Positions 3,991 to 10,185 of a stretch of 22,813 nt of DNA are shown piece after piece. A program made the translations under genes and the position numbers. The notes below the pieces were generated by a model, which was not told where the DNA came from, did not search any database, and saw only the letters and a list, made by a program, of their open reading frames with translations. How positions within the stretch are numbered: the stretch's first letter is position 1; the number at the start of each line of letters is the position of its first letter. The DNA is from a virus (lineage: Duplodnaviria; Heunggongvirae; Uroviricota; Caudoviricetes): IMG/VR virus record IMGVR_UViG_3300029517_000085, one strand, 5' to 3'.

Positions 3991-5274
3991 TTACTTCTTC
4001 GCCTCTGCAACCACTTTACTACCCACGCCGCGGTTATTGTATTCCCACATGCGGTTGTAGTTAGTGTCATTCAGATTGCGCTGTATTTCGTCGTTATCAT
4101 CTACGCTGCCGGTATTACCCGCAAACGGACGATTAGAGATCACCGCATCGGCCCACGGTTTAGCCGTGTTAAAACCTTCGTTGATGGCGCTATCACGGAT
4201 CACCACCTGACCGTTGGTATTGGCATCAACATCCAGCGAGCGGCCCAGTTGCGCCACACCATCACCGAAAGCATTGAAACGGCTGTTTACGGCGAGGAAA
4301 CCGTAGTAAATGTTGGACAGCGTAGCCGGTGCAAACACATACGCTTCTTGCTGAGTACGTGAGTTCACCACGCGGAATTCGGTGTTATCGAACACCACTG
4401 CGCCGCGACCAGAAACGATATCCACATCCCCTTCAATGTAGCTGTTGGTCACCAGCGTACGCGGCTGACGATTCGTTTCCAGACGGTTCTGCACACCGCT
4501 GTTGGTGACAAAGAAGGTGTTCTGACGACCGAGAATGTTAACGTTGTTAATCTGTACCTGGTCACCATCAGTACGCAGTGCCACCGCCGGATGGTTACCT
4601 GCATCTACGCTATCGCCCAGCGTGTTTTCGATGGTCAGATTTTGCAGTTGCAGGCCATTGTTTTGTGACCAGAAGACCGCAGAGCAGAGAACACCGATAC
4701 TGTCGCTGCGTTTGCTCTGGCAGCTATCGTACATATACCACGCTGGTTTACCTGGCATATATTTGCCGCGCGGGTTGACGTCGTGACGCCAGTCGGCAGG
4801 GCTCATGCCACCATCAAGGGAAAGCCCAATCTTCACATCAATCGGTTTTTCACCTGTACCGTACAGAGTAATTCCACCCGGAGCGGCAGGGACATATACC
4901 GTTCCCTGATACTCACCAGGCATCACGGCAATATACTGGCGCTTGTTGGTACGCTTGATAATTGCCGCATCTACCGCCGCCTGAATCGTGGTATGCGTTA
5001 CACCTTGAGTGCCCGCCGGGCCGACAACAAAGTCAGGTTGCGCAGGCAGGGTAATCGGGGAAGGATTCCACGCTGCAGCACCTGGTGTCAGGGATGCAAA
5101 ATAGTGTTGAGCATCGAAATTCTGCGCTTCTTTTGCCGACAGAATCGGGCGAGAAGAGGTACCAGGCGCGGTTTGATCAGAAGGACGTTGATCGGGCGGG
5201 GTTGAGCTACAGGCGGTCAGCGTCACGCCAAAAGCCAATGCCAGCGCCAGACGGGAAACTGAAAATGTGTTCAC
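3991..5274 (-). CDS. ybhC: Outer-membrane lipoprotein YbhC, pectinesterase-family fold
   Basis: 427-aa ORF. N-terminal signal peptide with lipobox LTAC-S (MNTFSVSRLALALAFGVTLTACSS). Position immediately chromosomal-side of the lambda attB core, as recalled for K-12. Confidence 0.85.
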   Translation of the reverse strand: MNTFSVSRLALALAFGVTLTACSSTPPDQRPSDQTAPGTSSRPILSAKEAQNFDAQHYFASLTPGAAAWNPSPITLPAQPDFVVGPAGTQGVTHTTIQAAVDAAIIKRTNKRQYIAVMPGEYQGTVYVPAAPGGITLYGTGEKPIDVKIGLSLDGGMSPADWRHDVNPRGKYMPGKPAWYMYDSCQSKRSDSIGVLCSAVFWSQNNGLQLQNLTIENTLGDSVDAGNHPAVALRTDGDQVQINNVNILGRQNTFFVTNSGVQNRLETNRQPRTLVTNSYIEGDVDIVSGRGAVVFDNTEFRVVNSRTQQEAYVFAPATLSNIYYGFLAVNSRFNAFGDGVAQLGRSLDVDANTNGQVVIRDSAINEGFNTAKPWADAVISNRPFAGNTGSVDDNDEIQRNLNDTNYNRMWEYNNRGVGSKVVAEAKK

Positions 5275-5310: not shown

Positions 5311-5412
5311 GTTGAAGCCTGCTTTTTTATACTAAGTTGGCATTATAAAAAAGCATTGCTTATCAATTTGTTGCAACGAACAGGTCACTATCAGTCAAAA
5401 TAAAATCATTAT
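5311..5412. other. attL: Prophage attL: bacterial arm + lambda core GCTTTTTTATACTAA (5321-5335) + P' arm with Int arm-type sites
   Basis: Sequence GAAGCCTGCTTTTTTATACTAAGTTGGCATTATAAAAAAGCATTGCTTATCAATTTGTTGCAACGAACAGGTCACTATCAGTCAAAATAAAATCATTATTTG matches the recalled lambda attP P' arm joined to attB. It lies directly next to int. Confidence 0.85.
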
Positions 5413-6479
5413 TTGATTTCAATTTTGTCCCACTCCCTGCCTCTGTCATCACGATACTGTGATGCCATGGTGTCCGACTTATGCCCGAGAAGATGTTGAG
5501 CAAACTTATCGCTTATCTGCTTCTCATAGAGTCTTGCAGACAAACTGCGCAACTCGTGAAAGGTAGGCGGATCCCCTTCGAAGGAAAGACCTGATGCTTT
5601 TCGTGCGCGCATAAAATACCTTGATACTGTGCCGGATGAAAGCGGTTCGCGACGAGTAGATGCAATTATGGTTTCTCCGCCAAGAATCTCTTTGCATTTA
5701 TCAAGTGTTTCCTTCATTGATATTCCGAGAGCATCAACATGCAATACTGTTGGGATGGCAATTTTTACGCCTGTTTTGCTTTGCTCGACATAAAGATATC
5801 CATCTACGATATCAGACCACTTCATTTCGCATAAATCACCAACTCGTTGCCCGGTAACAACAGCCAGTTCCATTGCAAGTCTGAGCCAACATGGTGATGA
5901 TTCTGCTGCTTGATAAATTTTCAGGTATTCGTCAGCCGTAAGTCTTGATCTCCTTACCTCTGATTTTGCTGCGCGAGTGGCAGCGACAGGGTTTGTTGTT
6001 ATATGGCCTTCAGCTATTGCCTCTCGGAATGCATCGCTCAGTGTTGATCTGATTAACTTGGCTGACGCCGCCTTGCCCTCGTCTATGTATCCATTGAGCA
6101 TTGCCGCAATTTCTTTTGTGGTGATGTCTTCAAGTGGAGCATCAGGCAGACCCCTCCTTATTGCTTTAATTTTGCTCATGTAATTTATGAGTGTCTTCTG
6201 CTTGATTCCTCTGCTGGCCAGGATTTTTTCGTAGCGATCAAGCCATGAATGTAACGTAACGGAATTATCACTGTTGATTCTCGCTGTCAGAGGCTTGTGT
6301 TTGTGTCCTGAAAATAACTCAATGTTGGCCTGTATAGCTTCAGTGATTGCGATTCGCCTGTCTCTGCCTAATCCAAACTCTTTACCCGTCCTTGGGTCCC
6401 TGTAGCAGTAATATCCATTGTTTCTTATATAAAGGTTAGGGGGTAAATCCCGGCGCTCATGACTTCGCCTTCTTCCCAT
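5409..6479 (-). CDS. int: Lambda-type tyrosine integrase Int (356 aa)
   Basis: Translation MGRRRSHERRDLPPNLYIRNNGYYCYRDPRTGKEFGLGRD... matches recalled lambda Int over its full length. Adjacent to attL. Confidence 0.95.
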   Translation of the reverse strand: MGRRRSHERRDLPPNLYIRNNGYYCYRDPRTGKEFGLGRDRRIAITEAIQANIELFSGHKHKPLTARINSDNSVTLHSWLDRYEKILASRGIKQKTLINYMSKIKAIRRGLPDAPLEDITTKEIAAMLNGYIDEGKAASAKLIRSTLSDAFREAIAEGHITTNPVAATRAAKSEVRRSRLTADEYLKIYQAAESSPCWLRLAMELAVVTGQRVGDLCEMKWSDIVDGYLYVEQSKTGVKIAIPTVLHVDALGISMKETLDKCKEILGGETIIASTRREPLSSGTVSRYFMRARKASGLSFEGDPPTFHELRSLSARLYEKQISDKFAQHLLGHKSDTMASQYRDDRGREWDKIEIK

Positions 6480-6675
6480 TTCTGATCCTCTTCAAAAGGC
6501 TACCTGTTACTGGTCGATTTAAGTCAACCTTTACCGCTGATTCGTGGAACAGATACTCTCTTCCATCCTTAACCGGAGGAGGGAATATCCTGCACTCGCG
6601 TACCCATCGACGAACTGTTTCAAGGCTTCTTGGGCGTCGCTGGCGTGCGTTCCACTCCTGAAGTGTCAAGTACAT
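6457..6675 (-). CDS. xis: Excisionase Xis (72 aa)
   Basis: Translation MYLTLQEWNARQRRPRSLETVRRWVRECRIFPPPVKDGREYLFHESAVKVDLNRP... matches recalled lambda Xis. Overlaps the int start as in lambda. Confidence 0.93.
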   Translation of the reverse strand: MYLTLQEWNARQRRPRSLETVRRWVRECRIFPPPVKDGREYLFHESAVKVDLNRPVTGSLLKRIRNGKKAKS

Positions 6676-6714: not shown

Positions 6715-6882
6715 TCAGGCGGCTTGGTGTTCTTTCAGTTCTTCAATTCGAATATTGGTTACGTCTGCATGTGCTATCTGCGCCCATATCATCCAGTGGT
6801 TATAACAGTCGTTGATGTTCTCTGCTTCGATAACCCTGTTGAATGGCTCTCCATTCCATTCACCTGTGACTCGGAAGTGCAT
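6715..6882 (-). CDS. Small hypothetical protein, lambda orf-55-like (55 aa)
   Basis: Hand-translated minus-strand ORF MHFRVTGEWNGEPFNRVIEAENINDCYNHWMIWAQIAHADVTNIRIEELKEHQAA. Same position and spacing relative to xis as the small ORF in lambda. Below the ORF-track size cut-off. Confidence 0.5.
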   Translation of the reverse strand: MHFRVTGEWNGEPFNRVIEAENINDCYNHWMIWAQIAHADVTNIRIEELKEHQAA

Positions 6883-6965
6883 TTATCATCTCCATAAAAC
6901 AAAACTCGCCGTAGCGAGTTCAGATATAATTTCCACCAAAGGCAGTAGTTGCTTGATGCTAAGAA

Positions 6966-7394
6966 TTATTCAATATCTATTCCTGTAATATCTTTTATCT
7001 TTTTCCTTGCAAAGCCTTTTGCTAGTGATTTTGAAACACTCATAAGTGTACTAATTCCCTCATCCTTAAAGTTTGTTTTTATAGCTTGCCAGACATCCTT
7101 TTGACGTAAGTCAGCAATAAAATCATGCCCTCTTGCTGTCAACCTCAGTGGTACTTCGATCCAACTATATCCAACACCTTCCCCTAACGCTTTGGACAAT
7201 ATATGACCGAACCCAGGTTTTCCATCAACCCTGACTATTAATTCGTAGTCACATAATAATCGCATATGGAAAATAAAATCTTGGTCATATCTATTAAAGC
7301 CATTATCCTCTAGTTCACTAAGCATCGTGTCAGGGCCACGAGTTTTTTCGAATGCGATAAGTAGATCTTTTAGATATTGCTGGTCTAATTTCAT
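6966..7394 (-). CDS. Hypothetical protein (142 aa), accessory gene in the xis-exo variable region
   Basis: ATG at 7394 preceded by a strong GGAGG SD 6 nt upstream. No family recognised with certainty (possibly a small winged-helix-like DUF). AT-rich codon usage. Confidence 0.6.
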   Translation of the reverse strand: MKLDQQYLKDLLIAFEKTRGPDTMLSELEDNGFNRYDQDFIFHMRLLCDYELIVRVDGKPGFGHILSKALGEGVGYSWIEVPLRLTARGHDFIADLRQKDVWQAIKTNFKDEGISTLMSVSKSLAKGFARKKIKDITGIDIE

Positions 7395-7422
7395 TGCCGC
7401 CTCCGTGACATGTCACAGAGAT

Positions 7423-7761
7423 TTATATCATTAATTTTGTTTCGTGCCAGCCTTTGGTCACCCAGCATTGTGAGTCACCATTACACGGGCATGAATTAAC
7501 AGGAACTCTCTCGCCGCACTTACCGCACCGTTTTCTGCTGATCGATTTTATACGCCAGCGCACACGTGCATCATCCTGGCGGCTCAGTAACGCGATGTAC
7601 TCACCAAACTCGCAAGGCGCACGCCTGAAGCGACGCGTGGCACAGTTACGCTCCAGCATTTCAATTTCCTGAGCATCAAGTACAAGCTCCAGCTTACGCA
7701 TACCGGATGATGCTTGCTTGGCTCTCTGATCGGCTTTGTGCTCTGTTGCTGATTTAGCCAT
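7423..7761 (-). CDS. Hypothetical Cys-rich protein (112 aa) with putative C-terminal zinc-ribbon
   Basis: ATG at 7761 with an AGGA SD. C-terminal RCGKCGERVPVNSCPCNGDSQCW has C-x2-C...C-x-C spacing. Sits 28 nt upstream of the 142-aa gene on the same strand. Confidence 0.55.
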   Translation of the reverse strand: MAKSATEHKADQRAKQASSGMRKLELVLDAQEIEMLERNCATRRFRRAPCEFGEYIALLSRQDDARVRWRIKSISRKRCGKCGERVPVNSCPCNGDSQCWVTKGWHETKLMI

Positions 7762-7955
7762 TCTGCTTTTCCTGCATCAGGAGAAAGACAATCATGGCGG
7801 CGCGGATACTTCCGGTATCTTTTTACGCGATATTCCCCTTCAATGGCACATACAAGAAGAGAGCCATCAACAGGAGTGATTGAGGAATCGACAACCAGCA
7901 ACGCTTAATTATCTATAGTGTCGTATTTGCTTCATAAAATATGGCGAATAACACA

Positions 7956-8054: not shown

Positions 8055-8669
8055 TTATCTAAAAGTCTTTCCACTTTTAACATCTAGGTATATTCTGTTC
8101 GACAACGTCATTCCTCCGCAATATGTGAAATAGATGTTTTCACCCTTATTGCTTGATGCCATCCACCCTCCGATTTCCTTAAAATCGCTTTCCGTGCAGA
8201 CCCCTTCATTTATTAACTTCCTAGCTGCCGAAGAAAACTCTTTTTTGTATATACGGTAGTCATCAGATCCTTTGATTAAAGTATCATCTCCGCTCGCATT
8301 TTCAGCAGGATCTGATGGCCTTTCACTGCTAAGATCACTAAGTTTAACCCATTCTGAAAACTTGCCATTAACGATTCCATTTTTTCTTGTGCAGGATTTA
8401 TTACCTTCTTTAATATATTCGCTTTCCCCTCCAACACATGAGGCTGAATATGGCTCAGTTATACGAACCCATTCACCTTTTTTTTCTAGAAAATCTACGC
8501 CTTCCCTGAAAAATAGTTTCCCAGCCACTCCACATTTACTTGAAGGGCAGGTATGTCTTTCCGTTCGATCAACAACAACCCATAGTTTTGATTCATTTTT
8601 TGCCATTGCCGATGGTATTTGAGATGAGACAATTAACGTAAGCCCTAAAATTAGTATTGATTTTTTCAT
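8055..8669 (-). CDS. Secreted/periplasmic Cys-rich hypothetical protein (204 aa) with N-terminal signal peptide; moron-like
   Basis: ATG at 8669 with an AAGGA SD. N-terminus MKKSILILGLTLIVSSQIPSAMA-KNE is a typical Sec signal with an AxA cleavage site. Several Cys in the mature part. AT-rich, with its own downstream terminator. Confidence 0.65.
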   Translation of the reverse strand: MKKSILILGLTLIVSSQIPSAMAKNESKLWVVVDRTERHTCPSSKCGVAGKLFFREGVDFLEKKGEWVRITEPYSASCVGGESEYIKEGNKSCTRKNGIVNGKFSEWVKLSDLSSERPSDPAENASGDDTLIKGSDDYRIYKKEFSSAARKLINEGVCTESDFKEIGGWMASSNKGENIYFTYCGGMTLSNRIYLDVKSGKTFR

Positions 8670-8967: not shown

Positions 8968-9219
8968 TCACGCTGCTCGTTGAGTTTTGATTTTTGCTGT
9001 CTCCAGCTCAACACGCAGTTTCCCCACCGTTAGCGCAATATCCTCGTTCTCCTGGTCGCGGCGTTTGATGTATTGCTGGTTTCTTTCCCGTTCATCCAGC
9101 AGTGTCAGCACAATCGATGGTGTTACCAGCTCATGGAAAAGGTCCGCGTCAAATCCCCAGTTGTCAGGCATTGCCTGCTCTGCCGCTTCACGCAGTGCCT
9201 GAGAGTGAATTACGCTCAC
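8968..9219 (-). CDS. Hypothetical protein (83 aa), acidic with a coiled-coil-like C-terminus
   Basis: ORF whose start overlaps the stop of the upstream TraR-like gene. No family recognised; possibly a remnant of an Ea22-like gene (speculative). Confidence 0.45.
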   Translation of the reverse strand: MSVIHSQALREAAEQAMPDNWGFDADLFHELVTPSIVLTLLDERERNQQYIKRRDQENEDIALTVGKLRVELETAKIKTQRAA

Positions 9220-9437
9220 TTCGAACCTCTCTGTTTACTGATAAGCTCCAGATCTTCCTGGCAACTTGCACAAGTCCGACAACCCTGAACGGCCAGGCGT
9301 CTTAGCTCATCTATGGGATCGCCACACTCACAACAATGAGTGGCAGATACAGCCTGGTGGTTCAGGCGGCGCATTTTTATTGCTGTGTTGCGCTGTAATT
9401 CTTCAATTTCTGATGCTGAATCAATGATGTCTGCCAT
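9216..9437 (-). CDS. DksA/TraR-family C4 zinc-finger protein (73 aa)
   Basis: Two Cys pairs (HCCECGD ... CRTCASC) with spacing typical of TraR/DksA C4 fingers. Common in the lambdoid early-left region. Confidence 0.65.
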   Translation of the reverse strand: MADIIDSASEIEELQRNTAIKMRRLNHQAVSATHCCECGDPIDELRRLAVQGCRTCASCQEDLELISKQRGSK

Positions 9438-9817: not shown

Positions 9818-9996
9818 TCAGTGGTTGTCATACCTGGTCTCTCTCATCTGCTTCTGCTTTCGCCACCATCATTTCCAGCTTTTGTGAAAGGGATGCGGCT
9901 AACGTATGAAATTCTTCGTCTGTTTCTACTGGTATTGGCACAAACCTGACTCCAATTTGAGCGAGGCTATGTGCCATCTCGATACACGTTCNNNNN

Positions 9997-10185
9997 NNNN
10001 NNNNNNNNNNNNNNNNNNNNNNNNNNNNNNNNCCGTTTATTATTTATCTCCTCAGCCAGCCGCTGTGCTTTCAGGGGATTTCTGATAACAGAAAGGCCGG
10101 GAAATACCCAGCCTCGCTTTGTAACGGAGTAGACGAAAGTGATCGCACCTACCCGGATATTATCGTGAGGATGCTTCATCGCCAT
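9997..10185 (-). CDS. Lambda orf60a-like small protein; 3' end falls inside the masked N run (9992-10032)
   Basis: N-terminal 51 aa [51 protein letters not shown] match recalled lambda orf60a. The rest is unreadable because of Ns. The end coordinate is inferred from the lambda length. Confidence 0.5.

Follow-up and report, generated by a model that had tools for sequence, protein, structure and literature searches.

A probable ribbon-helix-helix plus zinc-ribbon protein of enterobacterial phages and a candidate operator palindrome at the 3' end of its gene

Regulators of the ribbon-helix-helix (RHH) kind are well known, and autoregulatory RHH operators usually lie upstream of the regulator's own gene. 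Phage morons and mobile regulatory cassettes (e.g. the PeSL elements of T4) are built as units of promoter, open reading frame (ORF) and terminator. In Enterobacteriaceae, the RHH protein MatP reads matS, a site with GTGAC half-sites, according to passages of PMC3603311 that cite Mercier 2008; true matS is reported there to be absent from 500 prophages. Here, we analyse a 22,813-nt stretch of DNA (IMG/VR record IMGVR_UViG_3300029517_000085, Caudoviricetes), hereafter the window, which is an E. coli lambdoid prophage integrated beside ybhC. Its minus strand carries a gene that we call p112, for a predicted RHH and Cys4 zinc-ribbon protein, followed by a perfect 12-bp palindrome and a gene of the DUF2513 family. 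The new element is this palindrome, tied to the 3' end of p112 and to the ends of transcription units. In the reading that we prefer, and to which we give a probability of roughly 40%, p112 is a regulator that has the palindrome as its operator and gates a cargo slot or a unit boundary. The features at the centre of this account are:

7423 to 7761, minus strand: p112, a predicted RHH and Cys4 zinc-ribbon regulator of 112 amino acids (ORF with an ATG start; PHROG 536).
7555 to 7740, minus strand: N-terminal basic helix and YbfE-like RHH domain, p112 codons 8-69 (profile homology).
7465 to 7527, minus strand: Cys4 zinc knuckle or ribbon (C79, C82, C91/C93, C99), p112 codons 79-99 (family conservation).
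7405 to 7416, no strand assigned: the perfect palindrome GTGACATGTCAC, candidate p112 operator, in the 28-nt gap at 7395 to 7422 (conservation).
6966 to 7394, minus strand: gene for a predicted DUF2513 winged-helix protein of 142 amino acids, an optional 'cargo' gene (ORF with an ATG start; PHROG 585, PF10711).

The palindrome is made of two matS-type half-sites, GTGAC and GTCAC, with a 2-bp spacer, and it occurs once in the window. It lies within about 20 nt of the p112 stop (...gtgTGAcatgtcac), or overlaps it, in 27 of 31 distinct downstream contexts, and it persists there despite unrelated downstream sequence and a p112 identity as low as 47%. Farther out, a homologue only 32% identical to p112 has TTGTGAC-AG-GTCACAA overlapping its stop, with the arms kept and the central dinucleotide changed, and one further distant homologue has a degenerate copy.

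The palindrome is also found in several copies where p112 is a conserved gene. Phage epsilon15 (NC_004775.2), whose gp49 is a p112 homologue, carries exactly three perfect copies in 39.7 kb (at 2142, 19517 and 39612), against about 0.002 expected. One follows TerL, and the other two overlap the stops of gp49 and gp18; each copy adjoins an intrinsic terminator at the end of a transcription unit, two of the three stand at convergent gene junctions, and the record annotates none of them. More generally, a second copy is present 2.2-2.45 kb downstream in 39 of 54 epsilon15-like loci. This downstream copy forms the exact border between the conserved TerL-terminator sequence and hypervariable reverse-strand accessory genes, with at least six different right flanks. 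In TL-2011b, the second copy is found between ant and its terminator.

Both p112 and its neighbour are real genes, evolving as coding sequence. This follows from full-length family matches, hundreds of homologue clusters and differences from homologues that are concentrated at codon position 3 (e.g. 55 of 93 and 75 of 117). The initial annotation of this DNA had described two minus-strand ORFs of 112 and 142 amino acids separated by 28 nt, and exactly these are confirmed. It had also given each a good Shine-Dalgarno sequence, which is true of the 142-residue gene (GGAGG); AGGAAA before the ATG of the 112-residue gene is only moderate. Over its full length p112 matches PHROG 536 (E 7e-48), and its homologues include TL-2011b gp20 besides epsilon15 gp49. 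There are at least 394 homologue clusters across Enterobacteriaceae, and a profile search of 1.8 billion representatives returned 178 relatives, down to about 23% identity. The gene is present in 633 of 5426 complete E. coli genomes (about 12%) and in 55 GenBank phage records. Searches of Pfam (even at E<=1) and the PDB gave no sequence match, its database names are automatic only ('transcriptional regulator', 'hypothetical protein'), and we found no study in the literature that addresses this regulator.

The N-terminal part of the protein accounts for its likely DNA binding. Aligned by hhalign, the p112 family profile matches E. coli YbfE with a probability of 93.3% (E 2.8e-7, 57 columns), residues 8-69 of p112 falling on residues 37-93 of YbfE; the YbfE sequence used scores 169 bits against the NCBIfam model NF008671. 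Against that same model p112 scores 16.8 bits with a cutoff of 62, so p112 is not a YbfE equivalog, and its faint NCBIfam match is explained by the YbfE-like RHH homology. Individual members of the family give weak matches to RHH_5, RepB-RCR_reg and RHH_1. An AlphaFold (AF2) monomer built on a 53-sequence family alignment reaches a predicted local distance difference test score (pLDDT) of 93.4, with helices at 5-19, 30-43, 52-74 and 100-108 and with the strand region (20-29) as coil; a run on a shallow alignment (23 sequences, 66-86% identity) gave a pLDDT of 56 and was discarded. In its predicted structure, the p112 fold matches solved RHH proteins. A Foldseek search of the model against the PDB, a check proposed in the initial annotation, returned no significant match. 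Taken together, p112 is very probably an RHH DNA-binding protein. The earlier description of a Cys4 zinc-ribbon protein of nucleic-acid-binding type, with an Arg-rich region (here residues 43-47 and 66-78), was sound; what had gone unnoticed is that the main DNA-binding module is the YbfE-like RHH domain.

The C-terminal part consists of helix 52-74, the Cys4 ribbon and helix 100-108. In the 53-sequence alignment, which reaches down to 23% identity, C79 and C82 are invariant, C99 is conserved in at least 90% of sequences, P87 and G95 are nearly invariant, and almost all sequences have one Cys at 91 or 93. Because these cysteines are conserved family-wide, the zinc ligand set is taken to be C-x2-C-x8-10-C-x5-7-C. 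The window protein reads C79-x2-C82-x8-C91-x-C93-x5-C99 and has no Cys two residues past C99. Thus, the C-x2-C...C-x-C cluster reported earlier is present (C79-x2-C82...C91-x-C93), but the ligands are C79, C82, one of C91/C93, and C99. The p112 family is, on these homologies, a widespread and uncharacterized group of putative regulators that combine an RHH domain with a zinc ribbon.

The ribbon also raises the question of a different mode of action. Residues 48-111 align weakly with TraR residues 7-70 (hhalign probability 51.5%, E 1.5e-4, 4-sequence alignment), and profile matches to TraR and YbiI in the PDB are weak (E about 0.1). Were the resemblance functional, p112 would act on transcribing RNA polymerase or on RNA, loading at the palindrome DNA or at a nascent hairpin, and its TraR/DksA-like ribbon would alter termination next to it, in the manner of a Q/N-like antiterminator or as a termination enhancer or insulator. 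The Arg-rich N-terminal helix, the terminators that always adjoin the palindromes and the position of p112 directly upstream of next-stage genes (terminase in Uetakeviruses, Q in locus L292 and gemA-mor in L293; L numbers denote the loci fetched for comparison) would suit such a role. However, p112 has no match to the Pfam zf-dskA_traR model, its Cys spacing differs from the C-x2-C-x17-C-x2-C of that family (PF01258), and the tip of its helical hairpin is basic (RRPGR) and not acidic. Membership in DksA/TraR was rejected on the first two grounds, and p112 is filed as a YbfE-like RHH protein with a Cys4 ribbon. The Arg-rich helix, for its part, belongs to the YbfE-like RHH homology. A second conserved inverted repeat, TATTACC-N3-5-GGTAATA, lies between the terminator after p112 and the terminase small-subunit gene (L034, L141 and L289; 12-27 in epsilon15). 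The epsilon15 record annotates its equivalent as a repressor operator, which implies direct control of the late blocks by repressor; since such operators are annotated ahead of each late block, antitermination is not required. We regard an action of p112 on polymerase or RNA as a long shot.

Operator binding by p112 would work as follows. The basic arm and the YbfE-like RHH domain would dimerize and read DNA, whereas the Cys4 ribbon may provide a second function, for example oligomerization or contact with RNA polymerase. The most likely target would be GTGACATGTCAC, which accompanies the 3' end of the p112 gene as it travels. Upon induction, p112 would be expressed from the early-left (pL) transcript and, bound to its palindrome, would shut or gate the cargo and the genes beyond it, in the window orf55-xis-int. 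The proposed order of elements is p112, palindrome, cargo slot and terminator, so laid out that the window may hold a small promoter-cargo-terminator unit encoding the DUF2513 protein; in epsilon15-like phages, p112 protein and palindrome would mark the ends of transcription units. Binding of the palindrome, the promoter and the sign of the regulation are all putative here. Three smaller features complete the local anatomy:

7422 to 7450, minus strand: putative promoter-like element within the last p112 codons, as read from the sequence.
7400 to 7404, minus strand: Shine-Dalgarno sequence GGAGG of the DUF2513 gene, which abuts the 3' arm of the palindrome and lies 5 nt upstream of the ATG (7394).
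6902 to 6921, minus strand: intrinsic-terminator-like hairpin after DUF2513, which closes the module (terminator scan).

On the minus strand, the promoter-like element would comprise a -35 of CTGGCA (7450-7445), a 17-nt spacer, a TG (7430-7429) and a -10 of TATAAA (7427-7422). The -10-like hexamer contains the TAA stop of p112 and ends 5 nt from the palindrome, so that the predicted transcription start falls on it. A TGnTATAA(A/C) sequence, 4-6 nt ahead of the palindrome, recurs in diverged lineages through xTA-TAA codons. In three loci with an orphan DUF2513 gene (L126, L128 and L129), only the last 45-60 nt of p112 remain upstream, and these remnants retain both the -35/-10-like stretch and the palindrome. 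The layout of palindrome, Shine-Dalgarno sequence and ATG is found in other lineages too, and the order of stop, palindrome, optional cargo and terminator recurs in TL-2011b, epsilon15, Salmonella prophages and IMG/VR loci. The slot between palindrome and terminator can hold nothing, an ORF of about 60 residues, DUF2513, or a 145-residue ORF together with DUF2513.

Several observations count against the palindrome as the p112 operator. It was absent in four of the six distant p112 homologues that were checked, and the window and phage Chlobot have one palindrome each, none of them upstream of p112. The proposed promoter went undetected in a generic promoter scan. Lineages in which the palindrome overlaps a TGA stop have no -10-like element, so the promoter idea is not general; there, a terminator or a small ORF usually comes next. 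In addition, the exact 14-mer CGTGACATGTCACG occurs in phage loci without a p112 gene in the fetched stretch (e.g. between the lambda-like tail genes M and L, or inside coding sequence), and therefore the motif is not exclusive to p112. As an operator, the palindrome is a candidate identified by its conservation.

These points can be turned into a different account, in which p112 does not target the palindrome and temperate enterobacterial phages use it as a general boundary element. It could act in RNA, as a terminator-associated hairpin that affects how stable 3' ends are or how they are processed, or it could be a site for a host factor or a hot spot of recombination where modules join; p112 would then be merely the commonest gene on its conserved side and would regulate other promoters. 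The recurrent order of stop codon, palindrome and intrinsic terminator, the conserved/hypervariable border after TerL and the loci without a detectable p112 gene are all in keeping with this. So is the palindrome's RNA, which can form a 5-bp hairpin (free energy, dG, of -4.7 to -5.0), and so is locus L093 (about 60-127), where an IS1 end (ggtgatgctgccaacttactgat...) sits exactly at the palindrome upstream of DUF2513, in place of p112. However, the palindrome is conserved exactly and without compensatory changes, which fits recognition by a protein better than a generic hairpin. The 14-mer scan of IMG/VR, which returned many chance or coding matches, found a p112 homologue in 20 of 80 loci (often kilobases off), a strong enrichment, and multiple palindromes occur specifically where p112 is the conserved gene. 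Moreover, the variants of the locus resemble ordinary deletion or replacement and not site-specific insertion. We consider a p112-independent boundary element unlikely, but it deserves more weight than any other alternative. A composite is also conceivable, though rather improbable: p112 and GTGAC-AT-GTCAC as an undescribed phage boundary-element system, with MatP-like half-site specificity and a TraR-like ribbon that contacts RNA polymerase. Placed where transcription units end and ahead of accessory-gene slots, such a protein would insulate convergent units or gate read-through, and it would control which cargo genes, DUF2513 among them, are expressed in lysogeny versus lytic growth.

Other assignments of the palindrome were tried and rejected. 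A LexA box (CTGT-N8-ACAG) fails because the outer CTG/CAG is not conserved across lineages, and the palindrome does not fit CRP sites (spacer 6) or SlmA sites (GTGAGTACTCAC). In the lambda-type window prophage, the element is far from the terminase genes, which speaks against a role as terminase or pac site. Site-specific insertion of cargo was dismissed since empty and filled slots align as ordinary deletion or replacement, without duplicated sites.

The palindrome turned up in other settings as well. In L215 (5755), the 14-bp palindrome overlaps the stop of the lambda-type minor tail gene M and is followed by a terminator-like hairpin before L; this class is also found in L168, L176, L197, L211, L217, L218, L221, L228 and L244, and none of these loci has a p112 gene within the fetched stretch. 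In unrelated contigs of higher GC content (L188 at about 5055-5110, L210 at about 5062-5120, and L196, L226 and L243), several GTGAC/GTCAC half-sites cluster around the palindrome and resemble iteron or operator arrays for some GTGAC-reading protein. In some lambdoid prophages (L180, 774-802), a Q82-type antiterminator has its first residues (MRDMSR) encoded by the palindrome, which thus sits on the Q translation start. A megablast of the other palindrome classes against GenBank phages gave nothing useful.

The 142-residue protein matches Pfam PF10711 with an E of 8.6e-11 and 42.5 bits (cutoff 29.6), residues 2-115 spanning the whole profile (positions 1-100 of 100). DUF2513 is matched by each of the 29 aligned homologues, 13 of which also show a weak match to a wHTH family. 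Its homologue clusters number in the hundreds across Enterobacteriaceae; close relatives are present in two GenBank phage records and in 183 of 5426 complete E. coli genomes. Sequence and profile searches found no relative in the PDB, a literature search on DUF2513, PF10711 and the palindrome 12-mer found nothing relevant, and the ZX5 paper concerns genes other than these. By its profile matches, the DUF2513 protein appears to be of winged-helix type, and its gene a facultative cargo gene.

How tightly the two genes are linked was sampled from both sides, in 85 p112-centred and 80 DUF2513-centred loci. In 59 of the 85, and in almost all GenBank phages with p112, the gene occurs without DUF2513; in this sample, the one lineage in which DUF2513 follows is lambda-like, with a p112 identity of 93% or more. 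In the 54 epsilon15/TL-2011b-like loci, the next gene is that of the terminase small subunit. From the other side, about 16 of some 40 diverged DUF2513 loci (54-72% identical in DUF2513) have a p112 homologue directly upstream (47-62% identical). The two genes have diverged together around a constant junction of about 28-31 nt in no fewer than three settings: ahead of terminase, ahead of DUF1367 in nin regions and beside an integrase. In about 24 loci, DUF2513 stands without p112. Since diverged loci share the junction while each gene also occurs alone, the pair seems to be an old, recurrent two-gene arrangement, yet a facultative one. The prevalence counts (55 versus 2 phage records; 633 versus 183 E. 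coli genomes) support facultative linkage. The tandem pair of the initial annotation therefore survives as an arrangement that recurs with identical spacing in diverged phages, but each gene is also found alone and p112 mostly lacks DUF2513; the check it had proposed on conservation of context was borne out in part, with a pair that is optional across loci.

The same layout could also suggest a conflict module, either a toxin-antitoxin or abortive-infection system (RHH antitoxin with a DUF2513 effector) or an anti-defence operon in which the RHH regulator is Aca-like. An RHH gene directly upstream of a small partner, a short gap with a palindrome in it and a location in an accessory hot spot are what one would expect, and some lone DUF2513 genes adjoin defence-like genes, namely those for an AIPR-like protein of 568 residues (L131-L133, 1082-2788) or an HNH-type protein of 265 residues (L130, 2115-2912). 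These neighbours suggest accessory or defence hot spots as the home of DUF2513. On the other hand, each gene commonly occurs without the other, and p112 is a conserved gene of Uetakeviruses that lack DUF2513. The DUF2513 protein is of winged-helix type without a toxin or enzyme signature, and the palindrome lies downstream of the RHH gene and not in an upstream promoter. A type II toxin-antitoxin pair was rejected for lack of obligate co-occurrence and of a partner in any known toxin family or defence model. The host-takeover or anti-defence role suggested at first likewise found no backing, with no PADLOC match and no homology to known effectors; the architecture points instead to a transcription regulator with a second protein of DNA-binding (winged-helix) type. 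Of all the accounts weighed here, a conflict module is the least probable.

The surroundings of p112 fit a mobile cassette. In the window, the minus strand carries int (5409-6479), xis (6457-6675), a 55-residue ORF (6715-6882), the DUF2513 gene and p112, and past p112 a UmuD-like fragment, a 204-residue protein of secreted type, an Ea22-like fragment, a TraR-like gene and exo-bet-gam. The pair fills the ea8.5 slot of lambda, with the orf55 homologue on one side and the Ea22-like gene on the other, in the early-left region transcribed from pL; this bears out the earlier suggestion that lambda ea8.5-region content had been replaced here. Phage Chlobot and 141 complete E. coli genomes carry the region of the module with 100% identity. 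The cassette has moved among phages: in epsilon15-like phages, gp49 is the final gene ahead of the terminase genes, and in Salmonella prophages p112 is a nin-region gene whose ORF borders are also the limits of homology to the window. Two remnants lie at its upstream edge:

7754 to 7806, minus strand: 3' end of a NinX/DUF2591-type gene, reading ...RAAMIVFLLMQEKQNG*, whose stop overlaps p112 codons 2-3.
7794 to 7901, minus strand: UmuD-like (S24 peptidase) pseudogene fragment, called 'DNA repair protein, incomplete' by PGAP at the equivalent position.

The RAAMIVFLLMQEKQNG leader also precedes p112 in TL-2011b, L049, L062, L081 and L085, where it closes an intact upstream gene; this gene, NinX/DUF2591 in TL-2011b and elsewhere, overlaps the p112 start. 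In the window, the UmuD-like fragment is fused to the NinX/DUF2591 remnant (7754-7901, minus strand) and marks the mosaic junction at which the cassette was spliced into the early-left region. Because of this fusion, we attribute the transplantation to illegitimate recombination. Automatic annotation has handled this edge unevenly. PGAP calls the 112-residue ORF and a short UmuD-like pseudogene fragment, whereas the Chlobot record splits the region into a 46-residue 'transcriptional regulator' (a truncated p112) and a spurious 105-residue 'UmuD-like' ORF, both mis-calls; the 105-residue ORF, with its TTG start, is an artefactual read-through of the UmuD-like fragment. A BFVD search with p112 returned only the truncated 46-residue self-entry, labelled 'Ubiquitin-binding zinc finger protein'.

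Just upstream of the module, the 204-residue protein (8055-8669, minus strand) has an N-terminal signal peptide, MKKSILILGLTLIVSSQIPSAMA, a weak SH3_3 match and membership in PHROG 8310 (function unknown), and resembles a secreted moron-type gene. Farther on, a genuine zinc-finger gene of the TraR/DksA type (9216-9437, minus strand; lambda Orf73 type, Pfam E 1.5e-8) lies directly upstream of the truncated Ea22-like gene (8968-9219, minus strand); the window therefore has both a true TraR-like protein and, in p112, a ribbon that is only weakly TraR-like. At about 9990-10040, ORFs on both strands are broken by a stretch of N (masked or ambiguous bases), which appears as X in translations.

The p112 gene matters first of all through how common it is: besides its presence in about one in eight complete E. 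coli genomes, it is a conserved gene of epsilon15/phiV10-type phages, among them typing phages and prophages linked to Shiga-toxin-producing strains. If p112 does bind the palindrome, the two would form a new cis/trans regulatory pair that could explain how transcription units are delimited and how accessory genes are plugged into a fixed slot, and that would offer a simple handle for predicting cargo slots. The RHH-plus-zinc-ribbon architecture and the near-matS operator would then also lend themselves to structural and specificity studies. The palindrome is one base pair from matS, a motif reported as avoided by prophages. On the practical side, mis-called ORFs can be corrected in at least one deposited phage genome.

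Among known systems, p112 resembles YbfE (the 'LexA regulated protein', a CopG-type RHH protein), to which its basic N-terminal helix and strand-helix-helix (residues 8-69) align. YbfE differs in lacking the C-terminal zinc ribbon; its gene is chromosomal and under SOS control, and YbfE is itself functionally uncharacterized. Relative to the RHH repressors of phages and plasmids (P22 Arc and Mnt, CopG, and ParD/TacA-type antitoxin domains), p112 has the extra Cys4 ribbon, and its candidate operator, instead of lying in its own promoter, marks the 3' end of the gene and the ends of transcription units. The matS site of MatP has 13 bp, GTGAC[AG]N[TC]GTCAC, whereas the palindrome has 12 bp and a spacer of 2 bp instead of 3, with identical half-sites; p112 lacks the four-helix bundle and coiled coil of MatP, and hhalign detects no homology between the proteins (probability 0.2%). 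With the TraR/DksA family, p112 shares a layout of helix, C-x2-C-G-x2-(I/L)-P...G...C ribbon and helix, with a profile similarity that is weak; its fourth ligand is elsewhere, it has no acidic tip, and its ribbon is fused to an RHH domain. Lambda Ea8.5, also a small zinc-containing protein, occupies the same slot with an unrelated sequence (hhalign probability about 1% for p112 and for the DUF2513 protein). As in morons and PeSL elements, interchangeable accessory ORFs lie between a terminator and a short regulatory sequence that is conserved; what sets this locus apart is that the conserved sequence is a perfect palindrome of 12 bp tied to a dedicated regulator gene. RHH regulators are thus known as a kind, and what this locus adds is the combination of a YbfE-like RHH domain, a Cys4 ribbon and a near-matS palindrome at the 3' end of the gene.

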